In this document: in pieces, positions 3,745 to 42,835 of the stretch | Layout: each line of letters opens with the position of its first letter | How positions within the stretch are numbered: the first letter of the stretch is position 1 | From: Candidatus Kapaibacterium sp. | GTDB taxonomy: Bacteria; Bacteroidota; Ignavibacteria; Kapaibacteriales; WFXC01 | Reading direction: 5' to 3' | Length of the DNA: 64,000 nt | Assembly: GCA_026996895.1 (NCBI GenBank) | Contig: JALWJX010000082.1 | Coordinates: 38,031-102,030 of the forward strand | The notes under the pieces: model-generated | Databases searched by the model: none | Seen by the model: the letters and a program-made list of their open reading frames with translations, nothing else | Told to the model about the DNA's origin: nothing | Made by a program: the position numbers and the translations under genes

Positions 3745-3895
3745 AGGGAATGATGTTTGCCGACTAAAGTCGGCGCTCCCAGTGCCGGCGCTCCCGGTTT
3801 GCTGGAAGCGCACGCTTCAGCGTGTCTGGGAGCGCACGCTTCTGTGTGCATCGTCTTTGCCGACGAAACTCGGCGTTCCCCGGTATAGGACAGAC
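3745..3895. repeat. Cluster of REP-like hairpin repeats (unit TGCCGAC-N4-GTCGGCGCTCCC plus GGAAGCGCACGCTT modules) between convergent genes.
   Basis: The perfect short inverted repeat gccgacNNNNgtcggc followed by gctccc occurs twice here. It recurs at 20985-21300 in inverted orientation and at 58285-58445. Confidence 0.6.
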
Positions 3896-17349: not shown

Positions 17350-18568
17350 GCTGCTAATCCTATCCGAAGACTTCCCACCATATCCGGGTGGCATTGCCCA
17401 ATGGGCGCGGGGCATTGCGGTAGGTATTGCGAAAATGGGGGTCGAAGTTCACGTGCTTACCCGACACCGCAAAGATTTCATCCCGATTGCTCCTCATCCC
17501 AACGTGCACCTTCACTTCGTGTACGGCAAACGCTGGGCACAATTCCGCTCGCTGTACTATCGCCGCGCGGTTCGGGAACTGCTTGCTAAGGTCTTTGGCA
17601 TCGACACCATCATCGCCACAACGTGGAACGTCGCACGCGGTCTGGGTTCGATCATCGCAGCAGAACGCATCCGGTTGCTTACGGTTTTGCACGGAATGGA
17701 AATCACGCGTCGAATGCCGCGATGGAAACGGGCACTGCTATTGCACACGCTCTATAAAAGCAATCTGCTGATCGCTGTCAGCCAGTTTACGGCACAATCG
17801 GTGCTCCGCCTTGACCCCCTGCTCAAACACAAAATGTACGTTTTTCCCAATGGTGTCGATCCTGATCGCTTCCGTCCTGACATTGATCCCCAGCCGCTTC
17901 GAGAACGCTACCAGTTGACAGGCGAAGAAAAAATCCTACTGACGCTTTCCCGGATCATTGAGCGGAAAGGGCACGATCGCGTACTGGAAGCGCTTCCCTC
18001 TGTGATCCAGCACTTTCCTCACACGCGGTACTTTATCTGCGGTCCGGGCGATCCAGCATACGTTGCAAAGCTGCGAGCTATGGTAGAACAGAAAGGATTT
18101 GAGCCGTATGTCATTTTTGAGGGATATGTGCCGGAAGCAGACCTTCCTGTTTTCTACAACCTGTGCGATGTCTATATTATGCTTGCTCGAACGATTGCCG
18201 AAACCGGCGATGTTGAAGGCTTTGGCATTACCTATCTGGAAGCCAATGCGTGCGGTAAACCGGTCATTGCTGGATGCTCCGGCGGTGTAACGGATGCCGT
18301 CATCGATGGTGTCACGGGACTGTGTGTGGATCCCGACAATGTGCCAGCCATTGCCGATACTATCTGCCGACTGTTTGCCGATCCCGCACTGGCGCAGCGC
18401 CTTGGGCGCGCAGGACGGCAACGGATTGAACGGGAATTGAGCTGGGACCGAATTGCTGAAAAAATGCTGCCGCTTCTCTTTCCTCTGACGCACGTCAATC
18501 TTGCCGAACCAAATCCGTCATCGGTTTACAATGAACAAGTCGAAACAAAGCAGGGAGAAACGCAATGA
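17339..18568 (+). CDS. Family 4 glycosyltransferase.
   Basis: The N-terminus [25 protein letters not shown] and the C-terminal [29 protein letters not shown] are GT4-like. Confidence 0.8.
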
Positions 18569-19890
18569 ATTTTCAAAAGCTCACGCTAAAAGCACAGGAT
18601 GCTATGCAGAAGGCGCAGGAAATTGCGGCATCCCACAGCCATCAAGCGATCGAACCGGAGCACCTCCTTTATGCTCTGCTGCAAGATAGCTCCGGCATTG
18701 TACGCCCAATGCTGCTCAAGCTGGGAGCGAACGTTGACTACATCGAATCAGAACTGGAGCGTGAACTGGAACGATTGCCCAAAGTAAGCGGAGCGGCTCT
18801 GGGGAATCAGTATCTGTCCAAAACGCTGGTATCGGTGCTGGAAGCAGCGCTACAGGAAGCGCAGTCAATGCAGGACGAGTTTGTCAGCACTGAACACCTG
18901 CTCATTGCCCTTGCAGAATCCAAAACGGAAGCTGGACGGATTCTGACGGCGCAAGGTGCAACGAAGGAGACTATTTTACGGGTGCTCCAGGAATTCCGGG
19001 GATCGCGCCGGGTCACGGACCAGGCGGCTGAAGAGAAGTATCAGGCACTGAAGAAATACGGTAGAGTGTTGAACGACGAAGCCCGGCAGGGCAAACTGGA
19101 TCCGGTCATCGGACGGGAAGAGGAAATCCGACGTGTTTTGCAGGTACTTTCACGGCGAACCAAAAACAATCCCGTGTTGGTTGGCGATCCCGGCGTCGGG
19201 AAAACAGCGATTGTCGAAGGGATCGCCCAGCGAATCGTTAACGGAGATGTACCGGAGAACCTGAAGACCAAAACCATTGTGCAACTGGACTTAGCCGCCT
19301 TAGTCGCTGGTACTTCCTTCCGGGGACAGTTTGAAGAGCGGCTCAAAGCGGTGATCGAAGAAGTGGTCGAATCCAACGGGGAAATTATTTTGTTCATCGA
19401 CGAAATCCACACGCTGGTTGGAGCGGGCAGTGCGCAGGGCAGTATGGACGCTGCCAACATTCTGAAACCGCCATTAGCCCGCGGGGAGCTCCGATGCATT
19501 GGCGCTACTACGCTGGACGAGTACCGCAAGTACATTGAAAAAGACCCGGCGCTGGAGCGGCGATTCCAGAAAATTCTGGTTGAAGAGCCGTCGGTTGAGG
19601 AGACCATTTCTATTCTGCGGGGACTGAAAGAGCGGTACGAAGTTCATCACGGCGTCCGCATTACAGATGCTGCGCTGGTTGCTGCTGCGGAGCTATCCGA
19701 CCGTTACATCAACGACCGCTACCTGCCCGACAAAGCGATTGATCTGATCGACGAAGCTGCCAGCAAGCTCCGCATTGAAATCGACTCTATGCCCGAAGAG
19801 CTGGACGCACTGGAGCGGCGCATCCGACAACTGGAAATCGAGCGAGCGGCGCTGTTACGGGAACTGGAAGCAGCCCCAGCGTCGGCATAA
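18565..19890 (+). pseudogene. clpB: clpB-like chaperone gene truncated after 441 codons. It retains the Clp N domain, nucleotide-binding domain 1 and the start of the coiled-coil M domain; nucleotide-binding domain 2 is absent.
   Basis: It has Clp N-terminal repeats, the Walker A motif [20 protein letters not shown], and an NBD1 that ends in the M-domain helix ([23 protein letters not shown]) followed by TAA. No downstream ORF encodes the second AAA module. Confidence 0.6.
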
Positions 19891-20037
19891 CAGCGATAAC
19901 GCAGAGGACAGCGTCCCGGCACTCTCTGCCGACTTTCTTCCGTCGCTCCAGAGAGCAGCAGATAGCGGAGTGCCGGGTACCTTAGCGCAAAAGCGTAAAT
20001 TTGCAATTCCCTAAGCATCGCAACAACTGTCTCAGTA

Positions 20038-20259
20038 ATGGATATGGACGCTCGCAACAAATTCCAGCACCTGCTCCGGGAATTGTTCCAGTTCGACACT
20101 GCCGATCTGGACTTCGGCATCTACCGTATTATGAACCGCAAGCGGGAGGTCAACGCTGTTTCAAAAGAAAAGATATCTTTGCCAATCGACGGGCTCTGTT
20201 TTGCGCCCCTCTTTTGCTGTACACGCAACCGATGGAATGTTCACCGTGCAGGTGGTTGA
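20038..20259 (+). pseudogene. 73-codon gene remnant, apparently the N-terminal fragment of a larger protein.
   Basis: The segment FQHLLRELFQFDTADLDFGIYRIMNRKRE reads like a conserved N-terminal motif but stops abruptly. It is wedged between truncated clpB and the toxin-antitoxin pair, and its identity is uncertain. Confidence 0.3.
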
Positions 20260-20277
20260 AAATCTGGAGGAGAGAAA

Positions 20278-20592
20278 ATGCCATTGAAAATCCAGTATTC
20301 CCGCAGCGCTCTTGAAAAGTTCTGCAAGCGATGGCACATTCAGGAACTTGCTCTTTTCGGCTCTTCACTGCGGGAGGACTTCCGACCTGACAGTGATGTG
20401 GATGTTCTGGTCACCTTTCAACCTGGGATCTTCTGGTCCTTTCGGGACTGGCTCCAGATGGTGCGTGAACTGGAAGCTATTTTTGGACGAACGGTAGACC
20501 TGGTGGAACGCCGGATGGTAGAGCAAAGCAAAAACTATATCCGCCGCAATCATATTCTCACTCACCTGGAGCAGGTCTATGTGGCGCGATGA
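20278..20592 (+). CDS. mntA: Nucleotidyltransferase antitoxin (MntA-like) of a HepT/MntA type VII toxin-antitoxin pair.
   Basis: It has the minimal nucleotidyltransferase motif [18 protein letters not shown] (GS-x9-DxD). Confidence 0.8.
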
Positions 20593-20920
20593 GGCATACC
20601 TTCTCGATATGCTGATTGCTGCCCGCGAAGCCAGAGATTTCAGTGAGGGACTCACCTGGAAGACATTTCAACAGAGCTCTCTCCACCAGCATGCTATTGC
20701 TAAGGCATTGGAGAATATCGGCGAGGCAGCACGAAAAGTGTCGAACGAAATGAAAGCTGCTCATCCCGAAATTCCGTGGAGAGAGATTGTCGCATTGCGC
20801 CACCGTATTGCCCACGATTATTTCCACCTCGACTTAGTGCGGATATGGCAAATTGTGCAGGAAGACGTACCCACCCTCATTCGGCTCCTTGAACCGCTAA
20901 TACCTCCAGAGGAGCATTAA
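20579..20920 (+). CDS. hepT: HEPN-domain (DUF86) toxin HepT.
   Basis: The Rx4HxY HEPN motif is present in LRHRIAHDY. The gene overlaps mntA by 14 nt, as is typical for this pair. Confidence 0.8.
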
Positions 20921-20984
20921 CGACCGTTGGGGGAATTGTTTCAACCGCAATGCACTTTGAAGCGTGCATCCAGTAGCATCCTAC

Positions 20985-21300
20985 CGGGGGCGCCGGATTC
21001 AGCCGGCATGTTTCTGCACACTAAAGTATGCGCTCCAACCGGGAGCGCCGACTTCCGTCGGCAAAAAATAGAAGGATACACTAACGTAAATGTGTAGTAG
21101 GGGCGACCGGCCGGTCGCCCCTACGGGTGTGGATGATGTGACCAGCGGGGTTGCGCCGACTGGGAGCGCCGGCTTTAGCCGGCAAAGAATGCACCCGGAA
21201 GTGTGCGCTCCCAGTAAACCGGGAACGCCGACTTTCGCTGGCATATCTGGAACACCGACTTCCCGAAAGATAACTACAGATGTAGGCACTGCCGATTTGC
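20985..21300. repeat. REP-like hairpin repeat cluster (inverted orientation relative to 3745-3895) between convergent genes.
   Basis: It contains gggagcgccgac-ttcc-gtcggc, gggagcgccggc-ttta-gccggc, the ggggcgaccggccggtcgcccc palindrome, and gcgctccc modules. Confidence 0.6.
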
Positions 21301-21325
21301 CCCGGCAAAACAGCGAATTGACACT

Positions 21326-28105: not shown

Positions 28106-31100
28106 ATGCGAAGAGCGTGGATCAGTGCTATAGGAATTTTCATCAGCGTTTCGGTTATCTGGGGACAAACGCCTTCCAACGGCGCATTGCTGCTGACCAA
28201 CAATGCTGCTTTTGTTGTCCTCCCTGGCAGCGACATTACCATTGCAACCAGTGCGGGGATCAAACAGGAAAATGCCAGTGCAATCGTGCTGTACGGCGAC
28301 CTGGAAAATCACGGTAAGATCGTCCCCGGCGATGGATACCTGTTGTGTACGGGTCCTTCGACGCAGGTCCTCCGGGGTACTCGGGAAATTACTCTTAACC
28401 ACTGGTGGTTCCGGAAATCTGCTCCTTCCGACGTTGTCAAAATCGACAACGATGTGCGGGTCTATCAGCCGCTCACTGTGAATACGGTCACCTTAGAAAT
28501 CATCCACAGCAGCTCACACACGGTCACCCTGGACAGCGATCTTAAAATCAATGCTGATGGCAAGTGGATCGTTGCTTCAACGGGGACGACGGGACGCGAC
28601 CATCAAATTGTGCTCCGTGGCAATGCCCAAATCGATGGACAATGGATTCTCCGACCCATTCTGAACAACGACAACTATCGTGCCCGCCTGCGATTTCAAA
28701 CGACCGCAACGCAAACACTCACTGGCAGCGGGACGGTGCAATTCTACCAGGTCATTCTCGACAAAGGAAGCAAGGCAAACCGGGTTGAAAGCCGGATGAA
28801 CGTCGGGCTGAGCGCTCTGGGCTCAGGCTCTGCGATGGATTTCATCGCCGGTACGTGGCAGCAAACGACGGGAACGTTGACATTCGACAATGGCGTGAGC
28901 GTTTCTTACAACGAAACTATTGCCGCTAACGGATCACTCCAGATCCTGGGCGATGCTTCGATGATCATCGGGCAAAATGGCGTTGGAAGCTCTTTGATCC
29001 TCGACGGAGGCGAATTCATCGTAAACACGACTGGATTTGCCAATATCGGCAGCCAGAACGATAATTCCCTGCAATACACGGATGCTGGCGGCAGTCGATT
29101 CGAGCTCCATCAGGGAACAGTGACTGTTGCTGGACGCTTTTCACGCCAAACGGCAACGGGAACCAACACAATAGACTATCTCCAGACGGGGGGCACGCTG
29201 ATCGTCGGTGCCGTTGGTCACTCGAACGGCTCCCTCGGAACCTTTGATATCGGTGCCAGCGGCTCTTCCTTCACAATGGGCGGCGGGACTATCATTTTGC
29301 GCAATGCAAACAGCTCCGGAAGCAGCAGCCGTCCGGCAGATTTCAATGTTCAGGCAGCAACCGTTGCAGTCTCCGGCGGCACGGTTCAATTTGGCGATGC
29401 AGGGACGACAACACTGCAGCGATTCGATTATGATGTCCCCAACGGCGCATTGTGGCACGTATCGGTCAGTTCTGCGAACGCCACGGTTTACCCTTTTTCC
29501 CCAACTTCCGATCTCCGCATTCAGGGGAACTTCTACAATGCAGGCAGATGGGATGGGACACAAACGCGATCGGGCACTGCTGTCTCAACGGCTGGGATTG
29601 TCTTTGAAGGTAGTGGTGCCACGTCGCAAACGGTGCGAAGTCTGGGAACAACGACCTTTGCAACGTTGCGGATGAACCGCGGTGCCGGCAGCGGCATTGT
29701 GCAACTGCTCGATGACATTTCTGTCTCCCACCAGGTTGATCTGCGCGAAGGCAGCAATAGCCAGCCACAGATTCTGGCGCTGGGCAGTGGAGCCAATCTC
29801 TATGTGCTGAGCACCAGCACCACGGCAATTATCGACTACGCCAGTGCGCCAATCCGATACATTCGCACCAGTACCACCAGCGGCCGTGTCGTATGGAACG
29901 TTACGGCGGGAAAGACCTACTTCTTCCCCATAGGATCAGCCGAAAGTGGTGATACGTACACTCCCGCTGAAGTTGCTATCGGCAGTGGCGGCAGCGATGG
30001 CAGGATCGGCATCCGGGTCTCCCGTGGGCAACGTGCCGATGGAGCGCATCTCCAACTCCCGTCGAGTGCAACAGACTTTCTGCGACGATACTGGTCGATT
30101 TCCAACGTCACAATGACCCATCCTGCACAATGGACGTTCTACTATCAGGATGGCGCTGCATACCTTGCAGGCAGTGAAGCGAATCTGGCGCAAGCAGGGC
30201 GATGGCGACCAATCAACGAGGCGCCCGGTGGCAACTGGGTCGGCTACGCTGCAACCGTTAACCCATCACAGAATTTCTTCCAGTTGCCCACCCTTGACGC
30301 TTCACTGCTGGAAGGAGATTGGACCTTAGCCAATGAAATTTTCCGACAAATTTTCTACAGCCGCCAGAGCGGACCGTGGAGTCAGCACACTTCGTGGACA
30401 TATAGTCCTACCCACGTCGGACCCAGTGTGGCAACTGGCGTTTATCCCGCCGCCGCCACGGATTCTGCTGTTATAGGCGGCGGCAGTTATGGTGTCGGCA
30501 ACCACCATATCCAGTTGGATCTTTCCGTCACGATCGGTGGCGTTACTGTCGGCACCTCAGCTACCAACACCGGCACCTTAGAACTCCGGGATAACATCAT
30601 CAGCGGTGATTGGTTTGTCCTCCAAGATCAATCCACCCTGATGATTGGCTCGACCAGTGGCATTATGGCAGCCCCAGCGGCAGCAGGGAATGTGCAGACG
30701 ACCTATCGAGTTTTCGCCACAACCGCAACATACGTCTACAATGGCACAACGAACCAGACGATCGGTACTGCTCTTCCTTCGACCGTCGCAACATTTCGGG
30801 TCGACAACACAGGACCTGCCGGCAACAATCGCGTAACGGTAGACCGAACCATCCAGGTCACCCGGGACTTAGAAATCCTCCAGGGCGAATTAGACGTCAC
30901 AACGGTCACAATGCCCAATGTTAGCGCCAGCGGAAATTTTGTTCTGGCTACCGACGCATCTGTCCGCATAGGGGGGAGCAACAACTTCGGTGCAGCCTTC
31001 GCCGGTTACACCACTTACACCTTAGCCACCAGCAGTACGGTGGAATTCTACGGCAACAGCAAAACGGTCGATATGCCTCCAAACGGCGGACTCGGCTATG

Positions 31101-31291
31101 GCTATCTGGTCATCTCTGATGCACCAACGAAGTACATCAATGCACCGTTGCGGGTCCGTCGGGACGTGACGATCAATCCCGGTGCTTTCCTCTGGAACAA
31201 CGTCAGCGGTAATCAATTCCAGGTACTCGGCAATATTGTCAATCACGGGCAGCTATGCAACGACGGTATTATCGAAATTGGAATACCATAG
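28106..31291 (+). CDS. Large secreted Ser/Thr/Gly-rich protein of unknown function (1061 aa), encoded upstream of giant fiber-like protein 1.
   Basis: It has a signal peptide (MRRAWISAIGIFISVSVIWGQ) and low-complexity beta-rich composition. It appears co-operonic with 31416-39587, with a 124-nt gap and no intervening motif. Confidence 0.6.
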   Translation: MRRAWISAIGIFISVSVIWGQTPSNGALLLTNNAAFVVLPGSDITIATSAGIKQENASAIVLYGDLENHGKIVPGDGYLLCTGPSTQVLRGTREITLNHWWFRKSAPSDVVKIDNDVRVYQPLTVNTVTLEIIHSSSHTVTLDSDLKINADGKWIVASTGTTGRDHQIVLRGNAQIDGQWILRPILNNDNYRARLRFQTTATQTLTGSGTVQFYQVILDKGSKANRVESRMNVGLSALGSGSAMDFIAGTWQQTTGTLTFDNGVSVSYNETIAANGSLQILGDASMIIGQNGVGSSLILDGGEFIVNTTGFANIGSQNDNSLQYTDAGGSRFELHQGTVTVAGRFSRQTATGTNTIDYLQTGGTLIVGAVGHSNGSLGTFDIGASGSSFTMGGGTIILRNANSSGSSSRPADFNVQAATVAVSGGTVQFGDAGTTTLQRFDYDVPNGALWHVSVSSANATVYPFSPTSDLRIQGNFYNAGRWDGTQTRSGTAVSTAGIVFEGSGATSQTVRSLGTTTFATLRMNRGAGSGIVQLLDDISVSHQVDLREGSNSQPQILALGSGANLYVLSTSTTAIIDYASAPIRYIRTSTTSGRVVWNVTAGKTYFFPIGSAESGDTYTPAEVAIGSGGSDGRIGIRVSRGQRADGAHLQLPSSATDFLRRYWSISNVTMTHPAQWTFYYQDGAAYLAGSEANLAQAGRWRPINEAPGGNWVGYAATVNPSQNFFQLPTLDASLLEGDWTLANEIFRQIFYSRQSGPWSQHTSWTYSPTHVGPSVATGVYPAAATDSAVIGGGSYGVGNHHIQLDLSVTIGGVTVGTSATNTGTLELRDNIISGDWFVLQDQSTLMIGSTSGIMAAPAAAGNVQTTYRVFATTATYVYNGTTNQTIGTALPSTVATFRVDNTGPAGNNRVTVDRTIQVTRDLEILQGELDVTTVTMPNVSASGNFVLATDASVRIGGSNNFGAAFAGYTTYTLATSSTVEFYGNSKTVDMPPNGGLGYGYLVISDAPTKYINAPLRVRRDVTINPGAFLWNNVSGNQFQVLGNIVNHGQLCNDGIIEIGIP

Positions 31292-31415
31292 CTCCGGTGT
31301 ATCATAGCGGTGTTACGGGGGCTGTCAAACGCTATCTGGCACTTTGTGCGCAACCTACGCACACTGCACTGAAAATGGCAAAATATTTTGGGTAATAAAT
31401 CAAGGAAGTCTGGTG

Positions 31416-34400
31416 ATGAAACACAGAGTCCAATTGATACTTCTGATCTGGTTGATTTTTTCACCCTTACTCTGGTCTCAGGGCAATCCCAGCGTTGGAA
31501 TCGGCACTTTTACCCCTGATCCTTCTGCAATCTTAGAGCTTCGCTCCACATCGAAGGGGTTCTTGGTGCCACGAATGACAACGGCACAACGGAATGCGAT
31601 CAGCTCTCCTGCTCTCTGGCTGCTGATCTTCAACACTGATACCCAGCAGTTTGAATACTGGAACGGCACGGTATGGATCCCGCTGATTTCTATACAAAAC
31701 GTCAGCAACAGTGCCTGGTCTCTCAGTGGCAACACGCTCACCGGGAGCGAGTTTCTTGGATCTGTGAATCTCCAGCCGGTAGTGTTCAAGACCAATGGTG
31801 CGGAGCGAATGCGGATTTCCACGACCGGCAATGTTGGTATCGGCATCATTACGCCGACCAATACCCTGCACGTTAAAGCAACCAGCAATCCCCTGCGACT
31901 GGAAGGCTTGCAGTCTCTGAGCAACGCTTCTACAATCTTAGCGGTCGATGCCAACGGCGTTGTCTACACCACCAGTGCCAGTTCCTTTACGGCATCGAAC
32001 GCCTGGTCGCTGACAGGAAATGCCGGCACTGATCCAAACACCGACTTTCTGGGTACGACGGACAATCAACCGCTGGTGATTCGGACGAACAACACCGAGC
32101 GGATGCGGATTCTGGCATCCGGTTTGGTCGGGATCGGAACCAATACCCCAACGAACACGTTGCACGTCAAAGCAACGAGCAACCCACTGCGGTTGGAAGG
32201 CGTGCAAACTACTGCCAGCGCTTCGACCCTGTTAGCCATCGACGCCAATGGGGTCGTGGTCTCGACCAGTGCCTCGACTTTTGTTGCCAACAACGCTTGG
32301 GCACTCAGCGGCAACACGCTCACTGGCAGTGAGTTCCTCGGATCAGTCAATGCCCAGCCGGTAGTGATCCGAACGAACAACACCGAGGCGATGCGGATCG
32401 ATGCCAATCAACGGGTGGGAATTGGAACGAACGCACCGAGCCACACCCTGCACGTTGCTGCGCCCAGCAATCCGTTGCGACTGGAAGGGTTGCAGTCATT
32501 GAGCAATGCGGGAACGATCTTAGCCGTGGATGCCAACGGTGTTGTCTACACCACCAGTGCCAGTGCCTTTGCTGCTGCTAACGCCTGGTCGCTGACAGGA
32601 AATGCCGGCACTGATCCGACAACGAATTTCCTGGGCACTACTGACAATCAACCGTTGGTGATCAGAGTCAATAATCTGCAAGCTGTGCGAATTGAACCAA
32701 CGAACCAAACGATCAATATCATCGTGGGAACTTCCAACATCGTCACTGCGGGCGTCTATGGAGCTGTTATTAGCGGTGGTGGATATGGAAACAATGAAAA
32801 TAAAGTCACAGACAACTTCAGTACAGTAAGCGGAGGAGTTTCAAATCAAGCTGGGAACAATAACGCTGATGTAACCGATGCACAGTACGCCACGGTCGGA
32901 GGAGGCTACGGAAATACTGCCAGCGGTTTAGGCAGCACTATTAGCGGTGGATGGAACAACACTGCCAGTGCTGCCCGGAGTACGATTGGTGGAGGATATA
33001 ACAACAATGCCATCGGATGGGGAACCACTATTGGGGGAGGTGCTGATAATATTGCCAGCAGCGAGTATAGCACAGTCAGTGGTGGGAAAAACAACAATGC
33101 CAACGTTGCTTATAGTACCATTGGAGGAGGTCTGCAAAATACTGCCAGTGGTCAATATAGTACCATTGGAGGAGGTCTGCAAAATACTGCCAGTGGTCAA
33201 TATAGTACCATTGGAGGAGGTCTGCAAAATACTGCCAGTGGTCAATATAGTACCATTGGAGGAGGCAGTGCTAATATAACAGGTGGCGATTGGAGCACTG
33301 TGAGCGGAGGATGGACAAACATTGCCAGCGGAGGTGGCAGCGTTGTTGGTGGTGGACGGGGCAATACAGCAGGTGGAGCCTATAGTACCATACCTGGAGG
33401 TCTCAACAACTCTGCCCTGGGTGATTATACCTATGCAGGAGGAAGAGCGATGTATTTGAGTACCTCGGCCAACCATACCTTTGTCTGGGGCTATGCAACG
33501 GCAACTTCTGCTATCACCGCCTCCGACGCCTTCCTCATCGGTCCCTACGGGAACAACTACCGCGTTGGGATCAATGTCGTTAATCCTACTGCTGCTCTGC
33601 ATGTCACCGCTGGAACGTGGACGTATCCATTGCGACTGGAAGGATTGCAGCCACTGAGCAACGCCGGAACGATCTTAGCGGTCGATGCCAACGGCGTTGT
33701 CTACACCACCAGTGCCAGTGCTTTTGCTGCTGCCAATGCCTGGACGCTGACAGGGAATGCCGGGACTGATCCAGCAATTAACTTCTTGGGTACAACGGAC
33801 AATCAACCACTGGTGATTCGCACCAACAACCTTGAACGGATGCGGATCTCCACGACCGGCAATGTCGGCATTGGCATCAGCACGCCGACCAACACGTTGC
33901 ACGTCAAAGCAACGAGCAACCCACTGCGGTTGGAAGGCGTGCAAACTACTGCCAGTGCTTCGACCCTGTTAGCCATCGACGCCAATGGGGTCGTGGTCTC
34001 GACCAGTGCCTCGACTTTTGTTGCCAACAACGCCTGGGCACTCAGCGGCAACACGCTCACTGGCAGTGAGTTCCTCGGATCAGTCAATGCCCAGCCGGTG
34101 GTGTTCAAGACCAGTGGAATTGAAGCGATGCGGATCGACGTTGATCAGCAGGTTGGGATCGGCACCAGCACACCAACGAACACCTTGCACGTTAAAGCGA
34201 CCATCGATCCGTTACGACTGGAAGGGTTGCAAACCACCAGTGCTACTGCGACGGTCCTGGTTTCGGACGCTGCGGGGATCGTGTACACCACCAGCGCTAG
34301 CGCTCTTGCTGCTGCCAATGCCTGGTCGCTCACTGGCAACGCTGGAACCAACCCAGCGAGCAACTTCTTAGGCACCACGGACAATCAGCCACTGATTATC

Positions 34401-37400
34401 AAAGTTAATAACGCACAGGCATTGCGCATAGAGCCAACTGTCGGATCCCCAAATATTCTGGGCGGCTACGGATTGAACAGTATCTCCAGTGGCGTAGTTG
34501 GAGCTGTTATCAGCGGTGGGGGTAGCACTGGATTATCGAACAAAGTCACCGACAATTATGGTGTTATCGGAGGCGGCGTGGGAAATCAAGTGGGAAACAA
34601 TAGCGGAGGAGCTATCGATGCTCAGTATGCAACCGTAGGTGGCGGCTATGGAAACACTGCCAGCAGTACCTCGAGCACCGTGGGTGGCGGTGAACTTAAC
34701 ATTGCCAGTGGACTCCGGAGCACTGTTGGCGGCGGTTATAGCAACACTGCCAGTGGCGATAGGGGTACTGTGGGAGGAGGTTACGGGAATACCGCCAGCG
34801 GCCCGGGCAGCACCGTTGCTGGTGGCGAGAATAATACTGCCAGTGGTGGCGTGAGTGCTGTGGGTGGCGGTGACAACAATATTGCCAGTGGTGATGTGAG
34901 CACTGTGGGTGGCGGTTATAGCAACATTGCCAGCGGTGCAGGAAGTACTGTGGGCGGCGGTACAAACAACACTGCTAGTGGCAATACCAGTACCGTATCA
35001 GGTGGAGCTTTCAATACTGCAGCAGGTGACGTTTCCTGGGCTGGAGGAGCATACATGTATCTGTCGCCCACCGCCGATCACACCTTTGTCTGGGGCTATG
35101 CAACGGCAACTTCTGCTATCACCGCCTCCGACGCCTTCCTCATCGGTCCCTACGGGAACAACTACCGCGTTGGGATCAATGTCGTTAATCCTACTGCTGC
35201 TCTGCATGTCACCGCTGGAACGTGGACATATCCATTGCGATTAGAAGGCTTGCAACCACTGAGCAATGCGGGGACAATCTTAGCGGTTGATGCCAACGGT
35301 GTTGTGTACACCACCAGTGCCAGTGCGTTTGCTGCTGCTAACGCCTGGGCACTGACAGGGAATGCCGGAACCGATCCAGCAATCAACTTCTTGGGTACTA
35401 CGGATAATCAACCGTTGGTGATTCGCATTAACAACCTTGAGCGGATGCGGATTTCCACCATCGGCAACGTCGGCATTGGCATCAGCACGCCGACCAACAC
35501 CTTGCACGTCAAAGCGACCAGTGATCCGTTGCGGTTAGAGGGCGTGCAGAGCAGTGCTAATGCGACGACCCTGTTAGCCATCGACGCCAGTGGAGTGGTA
35601 GTATCGACCAGCGCCTCGACCTTTGTTGCCAACAACGCTTGGGCACTCAGCGGCAACACCCTCACTGGCAGTGAGTTCCTCGGATCGGTCAATGCGCAGC
35701 CGGTGGTGATCCGGACCAACAACACCGAGGCGATGCGGATCGATGCCAACCAACGGGTGGGGATTGGAACCAATGCACCGAGCCACACCTTACACGTTGC
35801 TGCGCCCAGCAACCCGCTGCGGTTGGAAGGCTTGCAACCTCTGAGCAATGCGGGGACAATCTTAGCCATTGATGCCAATGGCGTGGTGTACACGACCAGT
35901 GCAACATCCTTCACCGCTGCCAATGCCTGGTCGCTCACAGGAAACGCCGGGACTGATCCAAACACCGACTTTCTGGGCACGACGGACAACCAACCGCTGG
36001 TGATTCGGACGAACAACACCGAACGGATGCGGATTCTGGCATCCGGACTGGTCGGCATCGGAACCAGCACACCGAGTCATACGTTGCACGTCAAAGCAAC
36101 GAGTGACCCGTTGCGGTTAGAGGGCGTGCAGAGCAGTGCTAATGCGACGACGCTGTTAGCCATCGATGTCAATGGGGTCGTGGTCTCGACCAGTGCCTCG
36201 ACTTTTGTTGCCAACAACGCTTGGGCACTCAGCGGCAACACGCTCACTGGCAGTGAGTTCCTCGGATCAGTCAATGCCCAGCCGGTAGTGATCCGGACGA
36301 ACAACACTGAGGCGATGCGGATCGATGCCAGTCAACGGGTGGGGATTGGAACGAACGCACCGAGCCACACCCTGCACGTTGCTGCGCCCAGCAATCCATT
36401 GCGTCTGGAAGGCTTGCAGTCATTGAGCAATGCCGGAACCATCTTAGCGGTCGATGCCAACGGCGTTGTCTACACCACCAGTGCAACATCCTTCACCGCT
36501 GCGAATGCCTGGGCACTCAGCGGCAACACCCTTACTGGCAGTGAGTTCCTCGGATCGCTCAATGCCCAGCCCGTGGTGTTCAAGACTAATGGCGTAGAAC
36601 GAATGCGAATTACTGCTGCTGGTGACATTGGCATTGGAACCACAACTCCAGGTGCCAAAGTTGACATCCGGGCGAATAGTGCCAGCGATCTGCTGGTTCG
36701 CATCTGGAACGCTGGTGGCAATGCAAAATTCCGCATCGTTGGTCAGGGTGGCAGTGCACAACCACGGTTTCAGTATACGGTCAACGCTGAATGGCTCTCC
36801 GAGATTGCCGGCAACACCAGTACAGGTTTGGAATTCCGAGTTCGTGCTCCGTCGGATCCAAATGACGAAGCAACTCTGGCAACCCGAACCCGGATGGTGG
36901 TTGGGAGGACGGGCAATGTCGGCATTGGAACGCTATCGCCAACGAATCGACTCCACGTCGTTGCTCCCAGCAACCCACTGCGACTGGAAGGGTTGCAGTC
37001 ATTGAGCAATGCGGGAACGATCTTAGCGGTCGATGCCAACGGCGTTGTCTACACCACCAGTGCAACATCCTTCACCGCTGCGAATGCCTGGGCACTGAGT
37101 GGGAATGCGGGAACCGATCCAAACACCGACTTTCTGGGTACGACGGATAATCAACCGCTGGTGATTCGGACGAACAACACCGAACGGATGCGGATTCTGG
37201 CATCCGGACTGGTCGGGATTGGAACCAATACCCCAACGAACACGTTGCACGTCAAAGCAACGAGCAACCCACTGCGGTTGGAAGGCGTGCAGACTACTGC
37301 CAGCGCTTCGACCCTGTTAGCCATCGATGTCAATGGGGTCGTGGTCTCGACCAGTGCCTCGACTTTTGTTGCCAACAACGCTTGGGCACTCAGCGGCAAC

Positions 37401-39587
37401 ACGCTCACTGGCAGTGAGTTCCTCGGATCAGTCAATGCCCAGCCGGTAGTGATCCGGACGAACAACACTGAGGCGATGCGGATCGATGCCAATCAACGGG
37501 TGGGGATTGGAACGAACGCACCGAGCCACACCCTGCACGTTGCTGCGCCCAGCAATCCGTTGCGTCTGGAAGGGTTGCAGTCATTGAGCAATGCCGGAAC
37601 GATCTTGGCGGTTGATGCTAACGGTGTGGTCTACACCACCAGCGCCAGTTCCTTTACAGCATCGAACGCCTGGTCGCTGACAGGAAACGCCGGGACTGAT
37701 CCGACAACGAATTTCCTGGGAACTACCGACAATCAACCACTGGTGATTCGCACCAACAACCTTGAACGGATGCGGATCTCCACGACCGGCAATGTCGGCA
37801 TTGGCATCAGCACGCCGACCAACACGTTGCACGTCAAAGCAACGAGCAACCCACTGCGGTTGGAAGGCGTGCAAACTACTGCCAGTGCTTCGACCCTGTT
37901 AGCCATCGACGCCAATGGGGTCGTGGTCTCGACCAGTGCCTCGACTTTTGTTGCCAACAACGCTTGGGCACTCAGCGGCAACACGCTCACTGGAAGTGAA
38001 TTTCTCGGATCGGTCAATGCGCAGCCGGTAGTGATCCGAACGAACAACACTGAGGCGATGCGGATCGATGCCAACCAACGGGTGGGGATTGGAACCAATG
38101 CACCGAGCCACACCTTACACGTTGCTGCGCCCAGCAACCCGCTGCGGTTGGAAGGTTTACAACCACTGAGCAACGCCGGAACGATCTTGGCGGTTGATGC
38201 TAACGGTGTGGTCTACACCACCAGCGCCAGTTCCTTTACAGCATCGAACGCCTGGTCGCTGACAGGAAACGCCGGGACTGATCCGACAACGAATTTCCTG
38301 GGAACTACTGACAATCAACCGCTGGTGATTCGGACCAACAATGCGGAACGGATGCGAGTGTTAGCCTCTGGCTACGTTGGTGTTGGGACGACCTCTCCAA
38401 CTGCCCGGTTAATGGCAGTCGAAGATGCACCCGGACAGGCAGTGATGCGAATCCAGAATCTGGATGCCGCTGGTCTTTCCGGTATTGAATTTCTGACCCA
38501 CACCTCTGCTGTAATGGGGTACGTTGGGCTGGAACCTGGCGGCGGTGCTCTGCGCATCTGGAGTCAGTCAAATATGATCCGGTTCTATACCAACGGCGTA
38601 GAACGGGTGCGAATCACGACCACCGGAAACGTTGGAATCGGATCCTTAGATCCGCAATATCGGCTGCACATTGAAGGCGATGGAATGATGTACGCCTCTG
38701 GAGAATTCGGCAAGGGCGCAACGATGCCAGAAGGAGCAAAGACGGCGTTCATCTGGAATCCGCGCAAAGCGGCATTGCGAGCAGGATCGGTGACAGCAGA
38801 TCAGTGGAACGATGCTCAGGTCGGCGCTTACACCGTCGCTTTTGGTAAAAACACGATTGCCAGTGGCGCATTTTCCGTTGCGGTTGGAGAAAACACGGTT
38901 GCTGAAGGAGCGGCTGCGTGGGTCGGCGGTCGGAATTTGCATCTGCTCCCGGATGCAACGGGTACGTTTGCCTGGGGCAATACCGAACACTCCACATCGA
39001 TCGAAACCAGTTATGCGTTCCTGATTGGTCCTGGAGATACGCCCTACCGTGTCGGGATCAACACGGCAACACCGACGTACGCACTGGAGTTGCCCAATGA
39101 CTCGCGAGCGAACGTGGGACAGGCACGAGCAAACGCGTGGCTGACATACGCAGATCCACGGATGTGGAGTGCAACTGAACCCATTGGCGCAACCAGTGAG
39201 CTGTTGTCACAACTCCAACCGCTTCGATACCGCGATGTTGCAGGCAAGAGCGGCTTCAGCTTTGATCCCCAGCAACTGGCAGCGGTTCTCCCGGAAGCGG
39301 TGGGGGTTCCAGCAGACAGCTCGCAGCAGTGGAGTATTAACTATGCAGCGCTCATTCCTGTGCTGGTCGCAATGCTCCAGGAACAGCAGCAGCAAATCCA
39401 GCAATTGCGGCAACAGAATCTGGCATTGCAACAGCAAGTTGCCGAAACACAGCAACTCCGGAAGCGACTGGCAAAAATGGAGCAGCAACTGTCAACGCTG
39501 GAACAGTTACAGCAGCAGGTTCGGTACCTGATCCAGCTCCAGCGTGAAGCACGCCCCGTTCCAACAGCAAGCAACGGCGGAAAATAA
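31416..39587 (+). CDS. Giant secreted repeat protein (about 2,720 aa). It has a signal peptide, about twenty ~95-aa modules, two YadA-head-like Gly-rich 14-mer blocks, a C-terminal tail-fiber intramolecular-chaperone (peptidase S74)-like domain and a Gln-rich coiled coil.
   Basis: It has a signal peptide (MKHRVQLILLIWLIFSPLLWSQ) after an aggaag ribosome-binding site. The module consensus is NAWSLTGNAGTDP..FLGTTDNQPLVIRTNN.ERMRI...VGIGT.TPT.TLHVKATSNPLRLEGLQ....LAVDANGVVYTTSAS. The STIGGGLQNTASGQYSTIGGG repeats resemble the YadA head. The C-terminus (LQPLRYRDVAGKSGFSFDPQQLAAVLPEAVGV....QWSINYAALIPVLVAMLQEQQQQIQQL) resembles the S74 chaperone domain. Confidence 0.8.
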   Translation: MKHRVQLILLIWLIFSPLLWSQGNPSVGIGTFTPDPSAILELRSTSKGFLVPRMTTAQRNAISSPALWLLIFNTDTQQFEYWNGTVWIPLISIQNVSNSAWSLSGNTLTGSEFLGSVNLQPVVFKTNGAERMRISTTGNVGIGIITPTNTLHVKATSNPLRLEGLQSLSNASTILAVDANGVVYTTSASSFTASNAWSLTGNAGTDPNTDFLGTTDNQPLVIRTNNTERMRILASGLVGIGTNTPTNTLHVKATSNPLRLEGVQTTASASTLLAIDANGVVVSTSASTFVANNAWALSGNTLTGSEFLGSVNAQPVVIRTNNTEAMRIDANQRVGIGTNAPSHTLHVAAPSNPLRLEGLQSLSNAGTILAVDANGVVYTTSASAFAAANAWSLTGNAGTDPTTNFLGTTDNQPLVIRVNNLQAVRIEPTNQTINIIVGTSNIVTAGVYGAVISGGGYGNNENKVTDNFSTVSGGVSNQAGNNNADVTDAQYATVGGGYGNTASGLGSTISGGWNNTASAARSTIGGGYNNNAIGWGTTIGGGADNIASSEYSTVSGGKNNNANVAYSTIGGGLQNTASGQYSTIGGGLQNTASGQYSTIGGGLQNTASGQYSTIGGGSANITGGDWSTVSGGWTNIASGGGSVVGGGRGNTAGGAYSTIPGGLNNSALGDYTYAGGRAMYLSTSANHTFVWGYATATSAITASDAFLIGPYGNNYRVGINVVNPTAALHVTAGTWTYPLRLEGLQPLSNAGTILAVDANGVVYTTSASAFAAANAWTLTGNAGTDPAINFLGTTDNQPLVIRTNNLERMRISTTGNVGIGISTPTNTLHVKATSNPLRLEGVQTTASASTLLAIDANGVVVSTSASTFVANNAWALSGNTLTGSEFLGSVNAQPVVFKTSGIEAMRIDVDQQVGIGTSTPTNTLHVKATIDPLRLEGLQTTSATATVLVSDAAGIVYTTSASALAAANAWSLTGNAGTNPASNFLGTTDNQPLIIKVNNAQALRIEPTVGSPNILGGYGLNSISSGVVGAVISGGGSTGLSNKVTDNYGVIGGGVGNQVGNNSGGAIDAQYATVGGGYGNTASSTSSTVGGGELNIASGLRSTVGGGYSNTASGDRGTVGGGYGNTASGPGSTVAGGENNTASGGVSAVGGGDNNIASGDVSTVGGGYSNIASGAGSTVGGGTNNTASGNTSTVSGGAFNTAAGDVSWAGGAYMYLSPTADHTFVWGYATATSAITASDAFLIGPYGNNYRVGINVVNPTAALHVTAGTWTYPLRLEGLQPLSNAGTILAVDANGVVYTTSASAFAAANAWALTGNAGTDPAINFLGTTDNQPLVIRINNLERMRISTIGNVGIGISTPTNTLHVKATSDPLRLEGVQSSANATTLLAIDASGVVVSTSASTFVANNAWALSGNTLTGSEFLGSVNAQPVVIRTNNTEAMRIDANQRVGIGTNAPSHTLHVAAPSNPLRLEGLQPLSNAGTILAIDANGVVYTTSATSFTAANAWSLTGNAGTDPNTDFLGTTDNQPLVIRTNNTERMRILASGLVGIGTSTPSHTLHVKATSDPLRLEGVQSSANATTLLAIDVNGVVVSTSASTFVANNAWALSGNTLTGSEFLGSVNAQPVVIRTNNTEAMRIDASQRVGIGTNAPSHTLHVAAPSNPLRLEGLQSLSNAGTILAVDANGVVYTTSATSFTAANAWALSGNTLTGSEFLGSLNAQPVVFKTNGVERMRITAAGDIGIGTTTPGAKVDIRANSASDLLVRIWNAGGNAKFRIVGQGGSAQPRFQYTVNAEWLSEIAGNTSTGLEFRVRAPSDPNDEATLATRTRMVVGRTGNVGIGTLSPTNRLHVVAPSNPLRLEGLQSLSNAGTILAVDANGVVYTTSATSFTAANAWALSGNAGTDPNTDFLGTTDNQPLVIRTNNTERMRILASGLVGIGTNTPTNTLHVKATSNPLRLEGVQTTASASTLLAIDVNGVVVSTSASTFVANNAWALSGNTLTGSEFLGSVNAQPVVIRTNNTEAMRIDANQRVGIGTNAPSHTLHVAAPSNPLRLEGLQSLSNAGTILAVDANGVVYTTSASSFTASNAWSLTGNAGTDPTTNFLGTTDNQPLVIRTNNLERMRISTTGNVGIGISTPTNTLHVKATSNPLRLEGVQTTASASTLLAIDANGVVVSTSASTFVANNAWALSGNTLTGSEFLGSVNAQPVVIRTNNTEAMRIDANQRVGIGTNAPSHTLHVAAPSNPLRLEGLQPLSNAGTILAVDANGVVYTTSASSFTASNAWSLTGNAGTDPTTNFLGTTDNQPLVIRTNNAERMRVLASGYVGVGTTSPTARLMAVEDAPGQAVMRIQNLDAAGLSGIEFLTHTSAVMGYVGLEPGGGALRIWSQSNMIRFYTNGVERVRITTTGNVGIGSLDPQYRLHIEGDGMMYASGEFGKGATMPEGAKTAFIWNPRKAALRAGSVTADQWNDAQVGAYTVAFGKNTIASGAFSVAVGENTVAEGAAAWVGGRNLHLLPDATGTFAWGNTEHSTSIETSYAFLIGPGDTPYRVGINTATPTYALELPNDSRANVGQARANAWLTYADPRMWSATEPIGATSELLSQLQPLRYRDVAGKSGFSFDPQQLAAVLPEAVGVPADSSQQWSINYAALIPVLVAMLQEQQQQIQQLRQQNLALQQQVAETQQLRKRLAKMEQQLSTLEQLQQQVRYLIQLQREARPVPTASNGGK
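31700..38350 (+). repeat. Intragenic tandem and interspersed DNA repeats (285-bp modules, many more than 90% identical over more than 300 bp) inside the giant gene.
   Basis: Near-identical stretches occur at about 32170-32480, 37260-37570 and 37850-38150, and at about 31830-32000, 33820-33990 and 37780-37950. The same spurious antisense ORFs (MHAFQPQWVARCFDVQRV...) appear three times. Confidence 0.8.
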
Positions 39588-40056: not shown

Positions 40057-41196
40057 TCAGTTCAGATTGTATAGCAGGTTGATGTTAAAAGTGTATCGGT
40101 TTGGCTGATCTGTTGTGAGCTTCGTTGACGCACCGATACCGATACTAACGTTACTCTCAACATAATACAGGAAGGAAGCATCGATAAAGTGCGTTACAAC
40201 GGAGGTAGCGGCTGCATCAGCATTAAGGGTATACCCCAGAATGAAATTAATTCGGTTGCTCAGCTCATAAATGTAATCCAGGGTCAGCCGCGCAGCAAAA
40301 TGTTTGAAGAAGGTGGAATCCATCGGAGTATACAACTCGCCCAGCGTATTGACCTGCATCCGCCAGCCAATTGGATAAGAAAACCGTCCTGACAGAGCAA
40401 ATCGGGGTGCTCCGGCAGCTGTGGTATCCGGCGTGGTTATGACCATATTTACACCCAAGGATAAGTCCCAACCGAAATATCGGGGATTAACAATTTGATT
40501 TAATCCGAACAATACCTGCCGGACGCGAAAAACCCCAATAGCACTGAGCTTCTGTCCTTTAAGCTTACCAGACTTTTCCAGTTCCTGCTCAATGTCTTTC
40601 AACCAGTATACTTCATAGACTTCTTTATACTTATCCCGGTACTCTGCCTCCCGCTCGATGATATTTGCAATGCGAATCATCGTTTCCTTAGGTAAAGGAT
40701 CGGTCAGCAACTCTTCTTTCAGCAACTGCTCTTCGATCCGTACTGCCTTCGCAAGAGCGGTGGCATCAATGAAGCGTCCATATCCCGTACCTGCTGTTAC
40801 ATCCGATGCAATTCTTTCATAGCCTTTTTGATGATGGAGATTTAACTGTCCATATCCAAACCAGTCGTAGTCAGCCAAAATATACTTTCGAATACTGGCT
40901 CGCAGAAAAGCGCCGTGTGTCCACTCGCCAAATTCCTTCCCTCCTGATCCATCAAAATCAATAAACCAGGCGAAAGGCAGAGAAGAATAAAACCACCGGA
41001 GTTTCGCAGCGACCGCAGCACGATTGCTCGTGACCGAATCTCCCGTCTGTGCCCAGTTCCAAAAACCGGTTACCCACAGCGCCCGGGCAGAACTAATGGG
41101 AACCTGATAATCTGTCACTGAAACATTCTGTGCTCTACCTGTCAAGGACAGGCTGATAAAGCAGACTAAAGCAAGCAACACCCCAGAGCGTTTCAT
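40057..41196 (-). CDS. Hypothetical outer-membrane protein (signal peptide, beta-rich).
   Basis: It has a signal peptide (MKRSGVLLALVCFISLSLTGRAQ) and alternating aromatic and hydrophobic beta-strand patterns. The family is unknown. Confidence 0.5.
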   Translation of the reverse strand: MKRSGVLLALVCFISLSLTGRAQNVSVTDYQVPISSARALWVTGFWNWAQTGDSVTSNRAAVAAKLRWFYSSLPFAWFIDFDGSGGKEFGEWTHGAFLRASIRKYILADYDWFGYGQLNLHHQKGYERIASDVTAGTGYGRFIDATALAKAVRIEEQLLKEELLTDPLPKETMIRIANIIEREAEYRDKYKEVYEVYWLKDIEQELEKSGKLKGQKLSAIGVFRVRQVLFGLNQIVNPRYFGWDLSLGVNMVITTPDTTAAGAPRFALSGRFSYPIGWRMQVNTLGELYTPMDSTFFKHFAARLTLDYIYELSNRINFILGYTLNADAAATSVVTHFIDASFLYYVESNVSIGIGASTKLTTDQPNRYTFNINLLYNLN

Positions 41197-42017
41197 TGTA
41201 CTGATCCCTTCATTTGTTGAACAAATTGTGCATTAGGCAAAACAATGTTTTTTCCTTCTTCCTCAGATTGTACCATAGAGACTAAGGTGCCAATTGCTAC
41301 CAGTGTCCCGCGGATGTTCCCTACCTGAATAGATGTTCCAGGTTTCAACTGCCTTTGCAAGTAGTAGCCAGCTAACAGGTTCTTCACAATCTCAACGCTG
41401 CCCAATCCCATACTCAAAGCAAAAGCAATACCCAGACTTGCCAGTAATGTAACAACCACAAGAACCAGAATATCAGCGGCAATATTGAGCTGGGAAAGTG
41501 TAATAATGAGAGTCACAAGGATGATCAATCCCCGAACAATCGCACCGACGGCTCTGGAATACTCAGCTCCAATTCGAACGGCTGCTCCTTCAGCCAATCC
41601 ACCTAACACGCGGGCCGCCCAAAAGCCAATCACCAGAATTATCAGGGCAACTAAAAGATTTGGAAGGTAATAAACAATTCGTCCCACTACATCGGCAAAA
41701 AATCCCAAATTCAGAATATCAGAAATCGGTAGCAAAAACAACAGCAGAATAATCCAGAACAAAAGGCGCCCAACATACCAGCTTAAAGCTCGCCGAAACC
41801 CTGCTGTTCGAAGAAAGCTTTCGATCCCCGCTTTCTCCGCTACTCGATCTGCTCCAACTGCCTGAGCAATCCGAGTTGCGATCTTCTGCGCAATTTTAGC
41901 GATAACATAGGCAATCAACAGTAGCAGCAATGCAGCCGCTATCTTCGGAACGTAAATCAGCAACTGTGCCAAAGCAGCCTGTGTTGACCGAACAATCACA
42001 TCAAACCATTTTTCCAT
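41193..42017 (-). CDS. Small-conductance mechanosensitive channel (MscS family).
   Basis: It has N-terminal transmembrane helices and a C-terminal MscS beta domain (VQVGNIRGTLVAIGTLVSMVQSEEEGKNIVLPNAQF). The start is placed at MEKWF; the longest ORF extends to 42077. Confidence 0.65.
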   Translation of the reverse strand: MEKWFDVIVRSTQAALAQLLIYVPKIAAALLLLLIAYVIAKIAQKIATRIAQAVGADRVAEKAGIESFLRTAGFRRALSWYVGRLLFWIILLLFLLPISDILNLGFFADVVGRIVYYLPNLLVALIILVIGFWAARVLGGLAEGAAVRIGAEYSRAVGAIVRGLIILVTLIITLSQLNIAADILVLVVVTLLASLGIAFALSMGLGSVEIVKNLLAGYYLQRQLKPGTSIQVGNIRGTLVAIGTLVSMVQSEEEGKNIVLPNAQFVQQMKGSVQ

Positions 42018-42247
42018 TTTTTCCGATCTCCCATTTATAAAACTGACTCTGCTGCGTAGTCCTGGTAAAAACGGCAAAACAATTGCCGATGAAGATTTTG
42101 CAACTCTGAATAATCCAATCGCTAAAAAGCCGCGCTATTTCCGCGTGTTGAATTTTTTCGAGTAAAATTTCCAGCTCTACAGGCTCGCTGTTCTTTGTTA
42201 CTTCATTATGATGTTGCTGCAATTGCATTTTCTTCGTTAGGTTGTTG

Positions 42248-42835
42248 TTACTCAAACAAACGCTGGAAAATTCTGAGAAACTGAGCCTTTGCACGCGAAA
42301 TTTTCATTTTTGCCCCATTTAAAGTTGTTCGGAGCTTTTGAGCGATATAAGTGAGCGGGCGGTTTTTAAAATATCGCAGAATAAACGCTTTCCGATATTC
42401 CTGTCGCATTCGGCGGAGAATTTCCCCCAGAATTCTCCAGAATTGCTGTTCCTGAAGTGGCGACATCAGAGATTGCTCTATCAACTGAAAATTCGGCTCG
42501 TGCTCGGTGTTGAGTAAAAAACGTGCCCTTCGATTCTGTGCCAAACGGTAAGTAAGACTGAGATTGATCACAATCCGCGTTAGCCAGGTTTTAAAGCTAC
42601 TCTCGCCCCGAAACCCGGATATATGGAAATACACCCGGATGAAGGCTTCCTGCACAATATCCTGAGCATCTTCTCGATTCTTTACGTACCGCAGGGCAAT
42701 CTGATAGGCGTATCGTTGATATCGTTTTACCAGTTCGGTAAAAGCTCTCTGCTGCAGCGGAAGTTCTTCCTGACACCGCTTTACCAATTCTTCATCCGAC
42801 AACTTCTGTATTTCCTCCACCTGCATAGAAACCAT
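42248..42835 (-). CDS. ECF-type RNA polymerase sigma-70 factor.
   Basis: Region 2 (YQIALRYVKNREDAQDIVQEAFIRVY) and region 4 are recognisable, and the protein has ECF length (195 aa). Confidence 0.8.
   Translation of the reverse strand: MVSMQVEEIQKLSDEELVKRCQEELPLQQRAFTELVKRYQRYAYQIALRYVKNREDAQDIVQEAFIRVYFHISGFRGESSFKTWLTRIVINLSLTYRLAQNRRARFLLNTEHEPNFQLIEQSLMSPLQEQQFWRILGEILRRMRQEYRKAFILRYFKNRPLTYIAQKLRTTLNGAKMKISRAKAQFLRIFQRLFE

Follow-up and report, generated by a model that had tools for sequence, protein, structure and literature searches.

We analyzed a stretch of 64,000 nucleotides from Candidatus Kapaibacterium sp. (contig JALWJX010000082.1, positions 38,031 to 102,030), hereafter called the window, in which a clpB-like open reading frame (ORF) of 441 amino acids (aa) is found on the plus strand at 18565-19890. 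The segment that follows it (19891-21325) holds the remnant of a methyltransferase gene, an MntA/HepT-like toxin-antitoxin pair and a cluster of repeats resembling repetitive extragenic palindromic (REP) elements. An earlier note on this DNA had described the same succession of features and had taken it for the scar of a lost mobile or defense island, with the clpB-like ORF as a broken gene. Its description of the parts proved accurate. Its reading of the short clpB did not, and we show here that this ORF, which we call clpB-N, has the properties of one half of a ClpB encoded by two genes.

Domain content and surroundings of clpB-N

The product of clpB-N carries an N-domain, the first nucleotide-binding domain (NBD1), an AAA lid and helix L1 of the M-domain. 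Pfam matched two Clp_N stretches (PF02861, 3.5e-27) as well as PF00004 (AAA) and PF17871 (AAA_lid_9). NBD1 displays a Walker A motif (GDPGVGKT), a Walker B motif (FIDEIH) and arginine fingers in ALERRFQ, and its catalytic motifs, including ALERRFQ, are invariant across the aligned homologs of the same short form (N-halves). The ORF covers positions 1-431 of the 853 positions of the ClpB model TIGR03346 with 680.4 bits, below the equivalog cutoff of 1232.1.

The full four-helix M-domain, with motifs 1 and 2, is absent, and helix L1 alone is present. Indeed, the final element of the predicted structure (AF2) is a single long helix (residues 387-440), and the chain ends 8 residues past the equivalent of E. 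coli E432. The stop after residue 441 thus falls inside the M-domain, as the earlier note had stated, the last residue matched in E. coli ClpB being 436. According to Pfam, the polypeptide contains neither the second nucleotide-binding domain (NBD2; AAA_2) nor ClpB_D2-small. Furthermore, no second ClpB-type Walker A motif (GP[TS]GVGKT) and no other tested NBD2 signature was detected in the six frames of the whole 64-kb window, which bears out the claim that coding capacity for a second AAA+ module is missing downstream.

The ATG of clpB-N overlaps the stop codon of the upstream GT4 glycosyltransferase gene (ATGA, 18565-18568). Because of this overlap, clpB-N appears to be cotranscribed with a GT4-GT9-GT4 operon of the lipopolysaccharide (LPS) core type. 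In the sister species L102, a 20-nucleotide (nt) gap takes the place of the overlap, and other lineages have unrelated genes upstream. A weak terminator-like hairpin on the plus strand (19917-19931), 27 nt past the clpB-N stop, is a candidate only, as the number of such sites does not exceed the shuffled expectation. No CIRCE heat-shock operator was found upstream of either clpB half with up to 5 mismatches allowed, and an Rfam scan of the whole window gave no family at the gathering score.

The pore-loop aromatic residue of NBD1 (19303-19341, residues 247-259 of clpB-N) is a phenylalanine (SFRG), compared to the tyrosine of E. coli ClpB (KYRG). This phenylalanine is nearly invariant in the split N-halves. 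Since the unsplit relative P0109 has it too, it is a trait of the clade and was not produced by the split.

The end point of clpB-N is conserved and the gene is under selection

The identical 441-aa protein is encoded on seven contigs from separate samples, comprising NCBI metagenome-assembled genomes (MAGs), ENA assemblies and one Logan run, and the DNA of these strains is 95-97.5% identical to the window. Between the window and strain L001, clpB-N shows 36 synonymous and 0 nonsynonymous changes; for strain L005, the values are 33 and 0. For the sister species L102, the numbers rise to about 250 synonymous and 15.5 nonsynonymous differences. The complete lack of nonsynonymous changes against 33 to 36 synonymous ones between strains indicates that clpB-N is under strong purifying selection and is not a decaying fragment.

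The position of the stop is conserved as well. It lies 2-11 residues past ALLRE in 117 of the 120 best homologs (72-98% identity), many of which are found on contigs of 0.1-3.2 Mb. The few longer homologs represent N-terminal start-codon extensions, and the only sequences that continue further into the M-domain are the Ignavibacteria-type fragments P0106 and P0109 and one chimera. Columns A429, L430, R432 and E433 of the N-half alignment are invariant or nearly so; of these, R432 (nearly invariant) and E433 (invariant) correspond to K431 and E432 of E. coli. The homologs are named Kapabacteria or Kapaibacterium or come from MAGs loosely labeled "Ignavibacteria," "Chlorobi" or "Bacteroidota." Searching protein representatives with the N-half returned, at the 50%-identity level, a mixture of fragments that was uninformative on split versus unsplit forms.

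This end point is shared by genes that stand in different neighborhoods. LPS-type glycosyltransferase genes precede clpB-N in the window and in L102, while it follows a histidine kinase gene in L008 and a thioesterase gene in L009 and L010. No NBD2 gene lies close to clpB-N in L008, L009/L010 or L102.

The earlier note had also considered an assembly or sequencing error, that is, a frameshift or a chimeric join hiding a full-length clpB. Frameshifted clpB genes do occur in MAGs, as in L086 and L089, where the N-part is adjacent in another frame, but nothing specific points to such an error here. The same ORF with the same stop is present in the seven independent assemblies, the stop keeps its position on contigs of up to 3.2 Mb, and no frame of the window offers NBD2 coding capacity. 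We therefore give this explanation practically no weight.

A family of stand-alone C-halves is complementary to clpB-N

A search with the C-terminal part of an unsplit relative, followed by a profile search, yielded well over 100 stand-alone proteins of 437-453 aa that contain AAA_2 and ClpB_D2-small without Clp_N or NBD1. These C-halves have their own start codons and short unique N termini, and they occur on contigs of up to 4.35 Mb. What ClpB-N lacks is found in them, namely, helices L2-L4 of the M-domain, NBD2 and the small domain. As a family, they are conserved to the same degree as the N-halves. Two further proteins retrieved as C-halves, P0202 of Melioribacter and P0203 of Kryptonium, were dropped as evidence because they resemble pieces of unsplit genes that gene calling had fragmented.

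When the halves were aligned, the start of the C-half coincided exactly with the end of the N-half. By PDB mapping, residues 2-437 of the window protein correspond to residues 2-436 of E. coli ClpB and the C-half to residues 435-854; on Thermus thermophilus ClpB, the N-half covers residues 1-425 and the C-half residues 428-845. The alignment points to a clean cut, with nothing lost or duplicated between the halves.

In the predicted structure (AF2) of the C-half, a helix of 59 residues comes after 8 disordered residues at the N terminus, and conservation picks up again at R16-L17. Since the N-half ends in one long helix and the C-half opens with this 59-residue helix, the break is located in the turn between helices L1 and L2, at the tip of M-domain motif 1 (E. 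coli residues 433-435). Motif 1 of ClpB extends from E410 to Y455, with K431 and E432 at its end (PMC4023160).

Few residues beyond the ClpB sequence are present at the break: 2-11 at the end of the N-halves (8 in the window) and about 8-15 at the start of the C-halves. This bears on the idea that the halves are joined posttranslationally by a split intein. Split-intein DnaE occurs in cyanobacteria, and the unlinked halves of ClpB recall it. However, tails of this length are too short for intein fragments, so that trans-splicing can be excluded for nearly all purposes.

The two halves occur together in one chromosome and, in one lineage, side by side

Both halves were found on contig_14017 (3,201,621 bp). 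About 620 kb separate the N-half P0120, near 0.70 Mb, from the C-half P0276, at 1.325 Mb. In L106 (a contig of 1.81 Mb), they are adjacent: clpB-N (437 aa) directly follows dnaK, and only 22 nt, including AGGAG, lie between its TGA stop codon and the ATG of clpB-C (453 aa). The start of this clpB-C (MTE...) was found again in seven independent clusters.

The neighborhood of Kapabacteria-like clpB-C genes is conserved (L011, L012, L097, L100, L104 and L105). Upstream and divergently oriented are plsY, gpsA, kdtA, a larC-like gene, a DUF1361 gene and a UDP-glucose dehydrogenase gene, and downstream lies a DUF5723 gene, accompanied in most loci by CoA_binding_2. The intergenic region between plsY and clpB-C is long (300-680 nt).

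To place the split among bacteria, we draw on a scan of species-representative genomes with the C-half profile, which saturated on the universal motif IDMSEYM, so that the 80 bacterial clpB loci obtained amount to a near-random sample. Single genes of 855-990 aa made up more than 70 of them; three were genuine stand-alone C-halves, all of which fall in the same tree clade, and two were plain frameshifts. This control indicates that splitting is rare outside the clade. In neighbor-joining trees of either half, all split forms share a single clade beside Bacteroidia with a few unsplit genes of the Ignavibacteria type. Either a single old fission was followed by refusion in lineages that had kept the halves next to each other, or the same permissive loop was cut several times.

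L026 (CAZGXC010000063.1), a MAG labeled "uncultured Hyphomicrobiales," also has a stand-alone clpB-C (445 aa). On the tree, this gene groups with the stand-alone C-halves of the Fibrobacteres-Chlorobi-Bacteroidetes (FCB) group, with L018 as its nearest neighbor. L026 is probably a misbinned or mislabeled contig and not an independent split in Alphaproteobacteria.

Taken together, the conserved end point, the exact fit of the two families and their occurrence in one chromosome and in one dnaK locus make it probable that 18565-19890 is a complete and functional clpB-N gene, the first of two ClpB genes in Kapabacteria-like bacteria, some Ignavibacteria and Chloroherpeton-like relatives. Several observations weigh against this conclusion. 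A clpB-C from the species of the window itself was not found: the six candidates, picked by source pattern and tree position, are from other samples (P0269, P0196, P0201, P0270, P0250 and P0208). The conserved clpB-C neighborhood is not contained in the 64-kb window. Moreover, Kapabacteria show no linkage between the halves, and their clpB-N runs in the same direction as LPS glycosyltransferase genes; hence, coregulation is not evident. On the trees, the unsplit genes nest inside the split clade, next to the group with adjacent halves. Finally, these genomes possibly encode a second, full-length ClpB elsewhere.

The last point leads to a different explanation, namely, that ClpB-N is an independent short paralog that has nothing to do with the C-half family and works by itself, for instance, as an adaptor or as an ATPase with NBD1 only, while another ClpB of full length is present in the cell. 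The lack of linkage in Kapabacteria and the missing partner in the species of the window are in agreement with it, and NBD1-M alone is an active, oligomerizing ATPase in vitro (PMC4239642). In addition, full-length matches may have been hidden by an apparent length limit of the homolog search: the listed targets were at most about 1.75 times as long as the query (760 aa for the 441-aa query, 586 aa for 335 aa and 622 aa for 447 aa), and the lack of full-length ClpB among them is therefore not evidence of absence. On the other hand, the cut is exactly complementary to the C-half, and the N-half has kept helix L1, which would be left unpaired in the absence of L2, with conservation reaching the E432 equivalent. 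A related lineage has both genes side by side downstream of dnaK, and, among unsplit close relatives, only two Ignavibacteria-type fragments cross the split site. We thus regard an independent paralog as unlikely. The earlier note had named a known short ClpB-N paralog as a possible way out of its own interpretation. The short form it had in mind comes close to what we found, but this gene is no known, named paralog; it appears instead to belong to a pair of genes that together encode ClpB.

The segment downstream of clpB-N is a strain-variable hotspot

The first feature of the downstream segment is a 73-aa ORF on the plus strand (20038-20259), a gene remnant in which the homologous part is restricted to 20059-20151. 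Its residues 6-46 match positions 4-45 of the 1057 positions of the PADLOC model MTase_III (E=3.5e-6), and residues 8-38 share 80% identity with a 1082-aa plasmid "DNA methyltransferase" whose gene adjoins a DEAD-box helicase gene. No other piece of this homolog was found anywhere in the window. The earlier note had suspected the N-terminal remnant of a larger protein, and the homolog supports this for 31 of the 73 residues. These 31 residues are what is left of a restriction-type methyltransferase of about 1,000 aa, and the remainder of the ORF is unrelated read-through.

The toxin-antitoxin pair (20278-20920) is located next to it on the plus strand. It consists of an mntA-like nucleotidyltransferase antitoxin gene (20278-20592; 104 aa; PF01909, 7e-14; PADLOC PDC-S09, 8.6e-24) and a hepT-like RNase toxin gene (20579-20920; 113 aa; PF01934, 4e-26; motif RHRIAHDY), which overlap by 14 nt. 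As in the type VII MntA/HepT system, a nucleotidyltransferase (GSx10DxD) comes first and is followed by an overlapping HEPN RNase (Rx4HxY). Unlike that system, the pair remains under the NCBIfam equivalog cutoffs (60), with 41.6 bits for mntA (NF047752) and 28.9 bits for hepT (NF047751). It is also dispensable, because sister strains within the species have lost it by deletion. In the window itself, its sequence is apparently intact.

The right border of the slot is formed by the REP-like cluster (20977-21317), with at least five hairpin repeats that have the core GGGAGCGCCGRCTT and GCCGAC-N4-GTCGGC stems. The core occurs 12 times in the window, compared to 0.98 expected copies; the other clusters are intergenic as well and are situated at 3767-3880 and 58322-58430. 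Within the cluster on the right border lies a perfect palindrome of 28 nt (21097-21124; GTAGGGGCGACCGG/CCGGTCGCCCCTAC) that is distinct from the REP core. Known REP elements are likewise short, GC-rich intergenic hairpin repeats that are clustered, dispersed and found at rearrangement borders, but the sequence family seen here is specific to the lineage.

The slot between clpB-N and the NHL-repeat gene has four different contents in close relatives. In the window and L007, it contains the methyltransferase remnant, the intact MntA/HepT pair and the REP-like repeats. The slot of L001-L004 is the same except for a deletion of 565 bp (20287-20851 in the window) that removed mntA from codon 4 on together with the first 91 codons of hepT. 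Since the deletion junction sits at a 4-bp microhomology (ATTG), the intact pair of the window is the older state. L005 and L006 lack the 73-aa ORF, which is present in L001-L004 and L007; their homology to the window stops at 20042, and they carry a REP-bracketed insert of 3.4 kb with genes for a sigma-70-family factor, a 74-aa protein, a mechanosensitive-channel-like protein and a 379-aa protein. The proteins of this cassette (3914-6734 in L005) are 71-93% identical to those of the window's own genes at 40087-42838 on the minus strand, and because of this identity the cassette either is a second copy that has diverged or was acquired from a relative. Finally, the sister species has a gene for a 266-aa coiled-coil protein instead. 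The clpB-N stop is the same in every slot variant.

The scar proposed in the earlier note would have arisen by a local deletion or insertion event that removed a mobile or defense island along with the 3' half of clpB, so that a dead 5' fragment remained. One part of this proposal stands: a decayed defense-gene remnant, a toxin-antitoxin pair and REP-like repeats do lie directly downstream of clpB-N, in a slot that is demonstrably prone to rearrangement. The loss of the clpB 3' half in such an event is not supported. The end point is common to 117 of 120 homologs, down to 72% identity and in unrelated contexts, and strains differ by 33 to 36 synonymous changes with no nonsynonymous one. There is also a separate C-half family, with neither gap nor overlap between it and the cut. 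Aligning the locus with related genomes, from which the earlier note had expected the ancestral gene order to emerge, gave the four slot contents described above and one invariable clpB-N stop. We thus consider a deletion scar very improbable as the cause of the short clpB. The segment 19891-21325 is an ordinary strain-variable hotspot, unrelated to the shape of clpB.

Other features of the window

Only three copies of the near-palindromic box TTACGYAA (often AAGTTACGCAAC) are present in the window, at 2949, 28019 and 52061, each 45-90 nt upstream of the start of a plus-strand gene (2993, 28106 and 52142, respectively). The box was also detected in the plsY/clpB-C intergenic region of relatives (L012 at 3018; L097 at 7404, 7508 and 7702; L104 at 7588; L105 at 7650; L098 at 18), and it is absent upstream of clpB-N. 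The box may be a lineage-specific promoter or regulator site. The window additionally contains four very large ORFs, at 28106-31291 (1061 aa), 31344-39587 (2747 aa), 45790-50799 (1669 aa) and 52142-58246 (2034 aa), the first of which has no Pfam match on record.

A proposed two-gene ClpB and its relation to known systems

We propose the following model for the origin and assembly of a two-gene ClpB. An ancestral single clpB would have been cut at the turn between M-domain helices L1 and L2. ClpB-N would then carry the N-domain, NBD1 and helix L1, and ClpB-C (about 445 aa), encoded elsewhere in the genome, would carry L2-L4, NBD2 and the C-terminal small domain. The two chains would reassociate noncovalently, with L1 of ClpB-N zipping onto the first half of L2 of ClpB-C and thereby rebuilding motif 1. 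NBD1 would stack on NBD2, and six such pairs would form the usual two-tiered ring. This ring would be active in threading aggregated proteins together with DnaK, docked on motif 2 in the C-half. The consequence for heat-shock disaggregase capacity that the earlier note had deduced from the short ORF, unless another clpB exists, is probably not real.

More generally, it seems likely that the Hsp100 disaggregase of a whole FCB-group lineage (Kapabacteria-like bacteria with some Ignavibacteria and Chloroherpeton-like bacteria) is encoded by two genes that are often hundreds of kilobases apart. With the cut at the tip of the regulatory coiled coil of the M-domain, motif 1 would also serve as a heterodimerization zipper, and the two AAA+ tiers could be separately expressed, dosed and regulated. 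The adjacent dnaK-clpB-N-clpB-C form would then mark either the starting point of the split or a way in which the halves could fuse again. Our search of the literature on split clpB, gene fission, Kapabacteria and Ignavibacteria, in which subscription journals were mostly not covered, found no prior description of a natural split clpB.

For annotation, this would mean that hundreds of MAG entries named "AAA family ATPase" or "Clp protease N-terminal domain-containing protein" are in fact ClpB halves, and the corresponding genomes would stop looking ClpB deficient or ridden with pseudogenes. For the mechanism, a long-kept natural break at the tip of motif 1 offers a test of the role of the covalent L1-L2 turn in the repressive head-to-tail contacts between M-domains. 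It similarly tests the need for a 1:1 covalent link between the NBD1 and NBD2 tiers, and the way in which stoichiometry is maintained with unlinked genes. As a new variant of a very well-known machine, the split form should be of interest to specialists of AAA+ chaperones.

Compared to ClpB/Hsp104 (TIGR03346; E. coli ClpB; T. thermophilus ClpB, 1QVR), the window ORF is collinear with E. coli residues 2-436 and the partner family with residues 435-854, but two genes take the place of one encoding a polypeptide of about 860 aa. Each half falls below the TIGR03346 equivalog cutoff because ClpB would here be encoded as two genes. A further difference from E. coli ClpB is the replacement of the NBD1 pore-loop tyrosine by phenylalanine (SFRG) throughout the clade.

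The closest parallel is an engineered one. T. thermophilus ClpB has been made as two separate pieces, NBD1-M and NBD2 (Beinker et al. 2005, as cited in PMC4239642), and according to the title of that study, covalent linkage is not required for chaperone activity. In both cases, the ClpB sequence is divided between two polypeptides. However, the T. thermophilus cut is artificial and was placed after the whole M-domain, whereas the cut described here is natural, conserved and inside the M-domain, with L1 and L2 on separate chains.

Mutants of motif 1 provide a second comparison. In ClpB, E432A is repressed and deltaM1 (deltaE410-Y455) is hyperactive (PMC4023160), and the natural break lies 1-3 residues past the E432 equivalent. 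Unlike in these mutants, motif 1 of the two-gene ClpB is neither deleted nor mutated, and both of its helices and the R-E pair are conserved.

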